The translations under genes and the position numbers were made by a program. Under the pieces are notes generated by a model that saw only the letters and a list, made by a program, of their open reading frames with translations, made no database searches and was not told the DNA's origin. From Octopus vulgaris (Eukaryota): a stretch of 64,000 bases of DNA. The first letter of the stretch is position 1. Every line of letters begins with the position of its first letter. Where the stretch lies: NCBI GenBank assembly GCA_951406725.2, contig OX597817.1:72478001-72542000 (forward strand), given 5' to 3'. Positions 2,365 to 57,980 of this stretch are shown one piece after another.

Positions 2365-2499
2365 ATCATTTTGAACTAAGAGATGGGAAGTTGTATGTCA
2401 TAAAAGAGGTTAATGGTATTCATGAAATCCACTTAAGTGTCCAGTATGAAAGGATATCACTAAGTAAAAGGACTTGGTCGTTCAATTTCACTACTTCAA
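2365..2499 (+). CDS. Exon E1: [45 protein letters not shown] (beta-rich, family unassigned)
   Basis: ttttttattgcag acceptor, gtaaga donor, 135 nt, phase 1-1, open frame. Confidence 0.65.

Positions 2500-57980: not shown

Follow-up and report, generated by a model that had tools for sequence, protein, structure and literature searches.

Several vertebrate adhesion G protein-coupled receptors (GPCRs) carry immunoglobulin (Ig) domains in their extracellular part, and these number one to three per receptor. ADGRA receptors have the order LRR-Ig-HRM-GAIN, and ADGRF5/GPR116 has the order SEA-Ig-GAIN. In CEACAM, an IgV N-domain precedes the A/B domain pairs and a membrane helix or GPI signal directly follows the last Ig domain. 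Ig I-set and C1-set domains are listed among adhesion GPCR domains in the accessible text of PMC13197933, as are other very long ectodomains, including the ~2000-aa glycosylated stretch of ADGRG4 and the cadherin repeats of Flamingo/CELSR. The same text describes cleavage by the GAIN domain between His-Leu and Thr/Ser and activation of the 7TM part by a tethered agonist with the consensus TxFxxLM (PMC13197933). Adhesion GPCRs with Ig domains are also known from sponges (accessible text of PMC4302439). For octopus, Ritschard et al. 2019 reported a lineage-specific expansion of adhesion GPCRs, group 3, with LRR and Death domains, expressed chiefly in the axial nerve cord, the suckers, the skin and the gills (PMC6408891, accessible sections); the terms 'immunoglobulin' and 'Ig-like' occur 0 times in three of its supplementary files. 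Group 3 is an expansion in gene number, whereas the expansion described here is inside one gene.

The locus lies in the window, by which we mean the whole 64-kb stretch of Octopus vulgaris DNA that was analysed, and comparison with gene models and relatives makes it highly probable that the window encodes part of an adhesion GPCR ectodomain. We combined six-frame translation with tblastn and with a search for open exons of phase 1. This yielded 26 exons on the + strand, spanning 2365..57980 and listed here with their support, including comparison to the Octopus protein XP_029635561.1.

2365..2499, + strand: X1, 135 nt, end of a beta-rich domain; splice sites and frame
6056..6136, + strand: T1, 81 nt, Thr/Ser/Pro-rich linker
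9418..9483, + strand: T2, 66 nt, Thr-rich linker; paralogous to T1, whose region it matches at 76.6% in DNA
13730..13948, + strand: A1, opening part of Ig domain 1 in module 1; found with A3 as tblastn query, E 1e-5
17626..17853, + strand: B1, closing part of Ig domain 1 and opening part of Ig domain 2; found with B5 as tblastn query, E 2e-4
18340..18438, + strand: C1, closing part of Ig domain 2; found with C6 as tblastn query, E 4e-7
22018..22227, + strand: A2; splice sites and frame, XP_029635561.1 begins within it
25351..25584, + strand: B2; peptide exact in XP_029635561.1
29836..29934, + strand: C2; peptide exact in XP_029635561.1
30092..30301, + strand: A3; peptide exact in XP_029635561.1
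32708..32941, + strand: B3; two residues off XP_029635561.1
37621..37719, + strand: C3; peptide exact in XP_029635561.1
37867..38076, + strand: A4; peptide exact in XP_029635561.1
39189..39422, + strand: B4; peptide exact in XP_029635561.1
41362..41460, + strand: C4; splice sites and frame
41622..41831, + strand: A5; splice sites and frame
42944..43177, + strand: B5; splice sites and frame, the query that found XP_029635561.1
45124..45222, + strand: C5; splice sites and frame
45384..45593, + strand: A6; splice sites and frame, one residue off A4/A5
46706..46939, + strand: B6; splice sites and frame
48765..48863, + strand: C6; splice sites and frame
49011..49220, + strand: A7; splice sites and frame, one residue off XP_029635561.1
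50330..50563, + strand: B7; peptide exact in XP_029635561.1
51880..51978, + strand: C7; peptide exact in XP_029635561.1
52124..52333, + strand: A8; peptide exact in XP_029635561.1
57747..57980, + strand: B8; one residue off XP_029635561.1, and the gene extends past the window

Joined by coordinates, all 26 exons have an AG acceptor and a GT donor (26/26), are of phase 1-1 and have a length divisible by 3. Together they give 4530 nt, or 1509 codons with 0 stops, which recovers the stop-free chain of 26 exons and about 1510 aa that a preliminary description of this DNA had proposed. X1, T1 and T2 are followed by seven A-B-C sets and then by A-B once. The exons measure 210 nt (A), 234 nt (B) and 99 nt (C), with the exceptions of A1 (219) and B1 (228), and the window holds 15 complete Ig domains and one partial. 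From A1 onward the A-B-C order is strict, as the preliminary description had stated. The C exon of module 8 was not found in the 6 kb of the window that remain after B8. Exon B straddles the border of the two Ig domains, so a lone domain cannot be duplicated and the unit of copying is the three-exon set.

A decayed or unexpressed tandem repeat, in other words a pseudogene, is a very improbable account of these exons. There are 0 stops and 0 frameshifts across the 26 exons, whose splice sites are all intact, and a counterpart in O. bimaculoides is 82% identical. Furthermore, exon conservation is far above that of the flanking introns: the module-2 exons match their paralogues at 65-88%, and the flanking intron, compared in register, at 23-48%. 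A point that would fit a pseudogene is that dN/dS is 0.45-0.61 in the more diverged module pairs (those involving modules 2, 3 or 8), values near 0.5 reflecting modest constraint only. In 16 presumed-RNA runs, 0.07-0.16 of the words of 22001-31900 were present, a result that counts neither way.

Modules 2-7 each comprise 181 aa with 4 Cys. Pfam Ig_3 matched XP_029635561.1 in 7 stretches at 111 bits (cut-off 30), and A1 gave a weak match to Ig_2 (E 0.008, below the cut-off). Four other Pfam candidates on the same protein, BiPBP_C, DUF4431, Beta-prop_SCAP and Hfq_1, were rejected, as 0 stretches pass alone and the scores are sums over repeats. An AlphaFold2 model of the last module and following part of the O. 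bimaculoides counterpart (XP_052823110.1), built on a 25-row alignment, had a mean pLDDT of 83; the single-sequence fold reached 39. The model predicts beta-sandwiches at ~31-124 and 124-208, then a small domain rich in strands, and lastly a helix that begins at residue 265. With VIA-align, domain 1 superimposed on titin M10 (Z 10.6, rmsd 2.5, 87 aligned) and domain 2 on chain 6k7o_A of a LILRB4 complex (Z 9.9, rmsd 2.7, 83 aligned). Foldseek with the model returned Ig arrays, and the HRM part was barely tested by these fold searches, which gave Ig matches only. An Ig beta-sandwich with a Cys pair is the mark of the immunoglobulin superfamily, and the modelled module has it. Since the second half also matches Ig folds, the Trp-less second domain is predicted to be Ig-like. 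The motifs quoted in the preliminary description are present. AlphaFold and Foldseek, which it had suggested for one module, showed both halves of the last O. bimaculoides module to have predicted Ig folds. The Ig_3 score and these folds agree with its proposal of a Trp-less Ig-like domain and of an extracellular protein whose Ig-like domains alternate in pairs and number at least 15.

A search with exon B5 returned one protein among 16 candidates, XP_029635561.1 (LOC115210917, RefSeq, Octopus sinensis), a protein of 1441 aa annotated as 'uncharacterized'. In each module, 0-2 residues set it apart from the window. This protein covers A2 to B8 and then continues for ~580 aa, with three further modules downstream of the window part that are 30-46% identical to the window modules. 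When these three are added to the window, the locus would total ~11 modules, or 22 Ig domains. Missing from the RefSeq model are X1, T1, T2, module 1 and two of the middle modules, and it ends at the start of an HRM. Junction peptides common to it and to our chain number 17/25 as 11-mers and 19/25 as 7-mers, and the six junctions wholly absent all lie upstream of A2, within which the model begins; this agreement is with another gene model and not with reads. Because the A2-B8 part is already modelled in RefSeq, the gene is not 'hidden', as the preliminary description had called it.

A search with the C-terminal modules returned O. bimaculoides fragments, including XP_052823110.1 (P0004, LOC106882337), in which 147/179 residues (82%) are identical to the last module of XP_029635561.1. 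Near-identity thus connects the window to XP_029635561.1 and onward to XP_052823110.1, and by this measure both are the same gene as the window locus. Neither is named as a receptor. A longer search from XP_052823110.1 gave only XP_029635561.1 and no full-length Octopus receptor model, a blank that is weak evidence. At least three 'uncharacterized' Octopus models (LOC115210917, LOC106882337, LOC106875442) are tied to what is probably one large receptor gene, and surveys starting from 7TM-bearing models would miss the link to the Ig stalk.

What follows the last module points to the receptor class. XP_052823110.1 carries a Pfam HRM at 211-256 (E 1.4e-9, 38.7 bits vs cut-off 26.2), directly after the last module, and 8 of the 9 C-terminal residues of XP_029635561.1 match the start of this HRM. 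An HRM stands next to GAIN in many adhesion GPCRs; here it is found in the O. bimaculoides counterpart, outside the window. Residues 208-274 of XP_052823110.1 align to the HRM and following helix of a profile of three full receptors (E 2e-19), and the helix modelled from residue 265 corresponds to the start of the GAIN-leading helix in relatives. Additionally, a long multidomain N-terminus is characteristic of adhesion GPCRs, and the 1509 aa encoded here contain 70 N-glycosylation sequons, the sites of predicted glycosylation, vs 28 +/- 5 in 1000 shuffles (maximum 43), an excess over chance that also speaks for the exons being coding.

XP_052823110.1 was searched against 1.84 billion representatives, which gave 279 matches at E 0.001 or better, the best 150 of which were listed. 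Within these best 150 of 279, the best non-self match after XP_029635561.1 was Argonauta hians GAB1606681.1 (P0007, 'hypothetical protein, partial'; E 2e-68). Its layout is a Thr-rich linker, three modules, HRM, GAIN (E 5e-17), GPS (E 7e-14) and 7tm_2 (E 5e-43), and its best PDB match is ADGRL3 (E 1e-60). Pfam was run on 13/150 of the listed matches, picked mostly for long query coverage, and GAIN was found in 6/13 of these, all from the best 150 of 279. Given the HRM after the last module in O. bimaculoides and the HRM-GAIN/GPS-7TM layout in Argonauta, an adhesion GPCR ectodomain is the most likely identity, and it is likely that the eight two-Ig modules form the middle of such an ectodomain, in which the Ig pair has been multiplied to ~11. 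The preliminary description could not assign a family; the nearest relatives are adhesion GPCRs and the gene is in part in RefSeq. Its advice to look for GAIN/7TM was sound. Within the 64-kb window an HRM-GAIN-7TM profile found no GAIN, GPS or 7TM (best E 0.015), its matches being non-significant or on simple repeats. XP_029635561.1 and XP_052823110.1 both end before any GAIN/7TM and, judging from the relatives, the window gene would also end in GAIN and 7TM.

Among 176 proteins, a set gathered with an HRM-bearing query and so favouring HRM-bearing matches, single matches to a module profile that span the two Ig domains occurred only in the Octopus models, P0007, the P0024 cluster, P0133/P0171 and P0123; the other listed Ig matches among the 176 involve the first Ig domain alone. 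GAIN was identified by Pfam in P0007, P0024, P0133 and P0123, and a GPS motif in P0171. The HL|T cleavage site is kept in P0007, P0024, P0171 and P0123, and is followed by TxFxxLM in P0007, P0024 and P0123, in the form TNFAILM in P0007 and P0024. An HRM also occurs in proteins without GAIN, such as P0093, where it stands with RCC1 and TRP matches, and many listed matches hit only the HRM part of the query, several times over. In the last module 67/168 residues (40%) of GAB1606681.1 are identical, and at this identity it may be a paralogue.

In P0008-P0014 and other unnamed matches among the best 150 of 279, the HRM portion of the query aligns 8 to 25 times per protein, which suggests tandem HRM-like arrays.

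The ends of the Octopus models could also be read as genuine. In that case a transcript of the adhesion GPCR gene ending at or shortly after the HRM would encode a secreted or shed Ig-array glycoprotein, a matrix or mucus protein that lacks the 7TM. XP_029635561.1 ends 9 residues into the HRM, XP_052823110.1 ends soon after it, and the 1509 aa contain no convincing membrane helix (the highest 19-residue hydropathy is 1.95, in a stretch repeated per module). However, the Octopus models stop at different places, P0005 from the same O. bimaculoides locus earlier still, and such differing ends are the pattern of fragmentary models. Furthermore, XP_052823110.1 runs past the end of the HRM and enters the helix with which GAIN begins in relatives, and the scanned close relatives with module and HRM go on into GAIN. 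We consider a secreted product improbable.

A single-pass or GPI-anchored Ig adhesion molecule, of the CEACAM type or otherwise, would have to accommodate the same HRM, and we give this assignment very little credence. The preliminary description had seen a resemblance to the CEACAM A/B layout, and an ESM Atlas cluster that is CEACAM1-like (0.87) offers a lead only; CEACAM chains also appear low in a PDB profile search, at E 1e-6 to 1e-5. The lead is unsupported because the O. bimaculoides counterpart has an HRM, and not a membrane anchor, behind its last module, in the place where CEACAM has its helix or GPI signal. Within the window, module 1 is preceded by a Thr-rich linker and X1, with no Pfam match; the N-terminus of the protein, where CEACAM has its IgV N-domain, lies outside the window. 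The CEACAM-like/PSG-like proteins P0075 and P0112 gave no module-profile domain match at E below 1e-4, and adhesion GPCRs fill the top PDB ranks, though via C-terminal parts of relatives.

Among adhesion GPCRs, the nearest layouts are molluscan. The Argonauta protein resembles this locus in its Thr-rich linker, tandem two-Ig modules and HRM; it has three modules vs ~11 here, and possesses GAIN, GPS and 7TM. In P0133/P0171 (Octopus), P0123 and P0152 (both Patella vulgata) and P0024 an Ig pair stands directly before HRM-GAIN, as predicted here, but each has one module only. Members of the P0133/P0171 cluster are named 'ADGRB1-like', and P0024 is an unnamed protein of 2919 aa (17 cluster members) with one module, GAIN, GPS and 7tm_2. 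Further out the domains differ, with SEA in P0123, SRCR in P0152 and six ~330-aa repeats in P0024. With ADGRL3 and the Ig-bearing adhesion GPCRs of vertebrates the locus would have the class B2 layout in common, yet it would have ~22 Ig domains as against the one to three of those receptors. Where a SEA directly precedes Ig in ADGRF5/GPR116, the S/T/P-rich linker stands here, and neither X1 nor T1 has a Pfam match. T1 and T2 form this 51-residue linker before module 1, with ~53% S/T/P vs 56% in the Argonauta linker.

The repeats of P0024 and its cluster (P0156-P0169) occupy residues 24-1990, in six tandem copies of ~330 aa with a Cys-rich and a beta-rich part and no Pfam match. They precede a single Ig-Ig module and represent another repeat expansion in this receptor group, independent of the Ig one. 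A comparison made after the fact matched X1 weakly to the final strands of this repeat (rank 4 of 1001 against shuffles; window-wide E 9.8), which offers a lead. A cadherin-like identity for X1 gained no support, with no Pfam and no Atlas match.

Identity between modules peaks midway along the array. Identity to module 5 is 99-100% for modules 4-6, 96% for module 7, 91% for module 3, 78% for module 8, 58% for module 2 and 26% for module 1. The most recent copies lie in one block.

37401..48764, + strand: three genomic units, nearly identical and 3.6-3.8 kb long; every unit carries a single C-A-B exon set together with the introns

These units, which carry modules 4-6, are 98.65-99.73% identical including introns, and an AAT/AAG microsatellite block of differing length lies upstream of the C exon in each. 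The pattern fits repeated unequal crossing-over. In a module tree that omits modules 5 and 6, which nearly duplicate module 4, modules 3, 4, 7 and 8 form one recent group (99/99); with 4/14 inner branches supported, this tree left the Argonauta modules unplaced and did not decide whether Argonauta and Octopus share duplications. Taken together with the molluscan relatives, the comparison suggests that a single Ig-Ig pair before the HRM has likely been multiplied to ~11 by tandem copying of three exons.

One or two units at 37.4-48.8 kb might instead be assembly duplicates, leaving ~nine or ten modules. Such a reduction would affect nothing but copy number and fits an adhesion GPCR equally. XP_029635561.1 has one such module where the window has three, and two of the three units differ at only 10 of 3641 aligned bases. 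Against this, each unit is distinct, with 34, 1 and 9 private substitutions and its own microsatellite length, and two haplotypes of one copy would give two versions at most. The gap in XP_029635561.1 is accounted for equally well if the other assembly collapsed the units or if copy number truly varies. We regard the shorter array as unlikely, though it deserves some weight, and continue with ~11 modules.

The first residues of A7 (49011-49220) are like those of A8 (52124-52333), while B7 resembles B4-B6. The module copies are therefore mosaics, in which break points or conversion tracts differ in place.

In the mechanism that we propose, which draws on known adhesion GPCR biology, the receptor would cut itself at the GPS, and matrix or a facing cell would be bound by distal domains that would lie upstream of the Thr-rich linker. 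An Ig domain measures ~3.5-4 nm. With its many predicted N-glycans the array would serve as a spacer, roughly 80 nm long if its 22 domains were extended, and tension or ligand binding would be passed down it, exposing the tethered agonist and switching on the 7TM part. Module number would then set reach and mechanical sensitivity. Whether the array serves mainly as a length-setting tether is, in our judgement, evenly balanced; alternatively, the array itself could bind ligand and gain avidity from identical copies. It is a tentative idea, which we hold to be possible rather than probable, that this is an adhesion GPCR with a ~22-Ig stalk still changing length by whole-module duplication, a natural ruler tuning both the reach and the force threshold of a mechanosensing receptor. 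Under that idea, module copy number may vary between living octopuses.

Ig pairs number 1 in the limpet and octopus paralogues, 3 in Argonauta and 9-11 in Octopus, and the size of the array looks lineage-specific, as the preliminary description had thought possible for the protein. To our knowledge, ~22 Ig domains would make the longest Ig array in the adhesion GPCR class, and no adhesion GPCR with a similar number of Ig domains is known from the literature searched. Novelty lies in how large the array is and in how it has grown, whereas its domain types and the receptor class are familiar. In the literature searched, a body that mostly excludes subscription journals, the five accession numbers occur in 0 papers, and no title or abstract mentions an Ig-array octopus receptor or the LOC115210917 gene; the accessible part of PMC10084454 has no mention of such a receptor. 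An effect of ectodomain length has been shown with engineered Ig spacers in one adhesion GPCR: insertion of a ~20 nm CD4 Ig spacer into Drosophila Cirl flattened the mechanosensory response (PMC5548486, accessible text). The 1, 3 and ~11 copies of one in-frame module constitute a natural spacer series in which this idea can be tested.

The introns of the locus contain several repeats. A 339-bp direct repeat (7148-7486 and 7512-7850, 98.8% identical) lies in the T1-T2 intron, and a zf-RVT remnant (16855-17244, E 5e-5) in the A1-B1 intron. A retroelement remnant with in-frame stops begins ~90 nt after the B3 donor (33034-34080), with a weak RVT_1 match in its first part (E 0.003). The A-B introns contain an open stretch at 38374-38856, with copies near 42.2, 45.9 and 49.6 kb that were copied with the units; by eye it looks like a DNA-transposon remnant, an origin that Pfam did not confirm for the stretch or its copies. 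Similarly, the B-C intron of each recent unit holds a 198-bp two-copy repeat, ~89% identical (40454-40857, 44210-44613 and 47971-48374). Finally, a LINE-type reverse transcriptase fragment (RVT_1, E 5e-14) occupies 63304-63999 at the end of the window.
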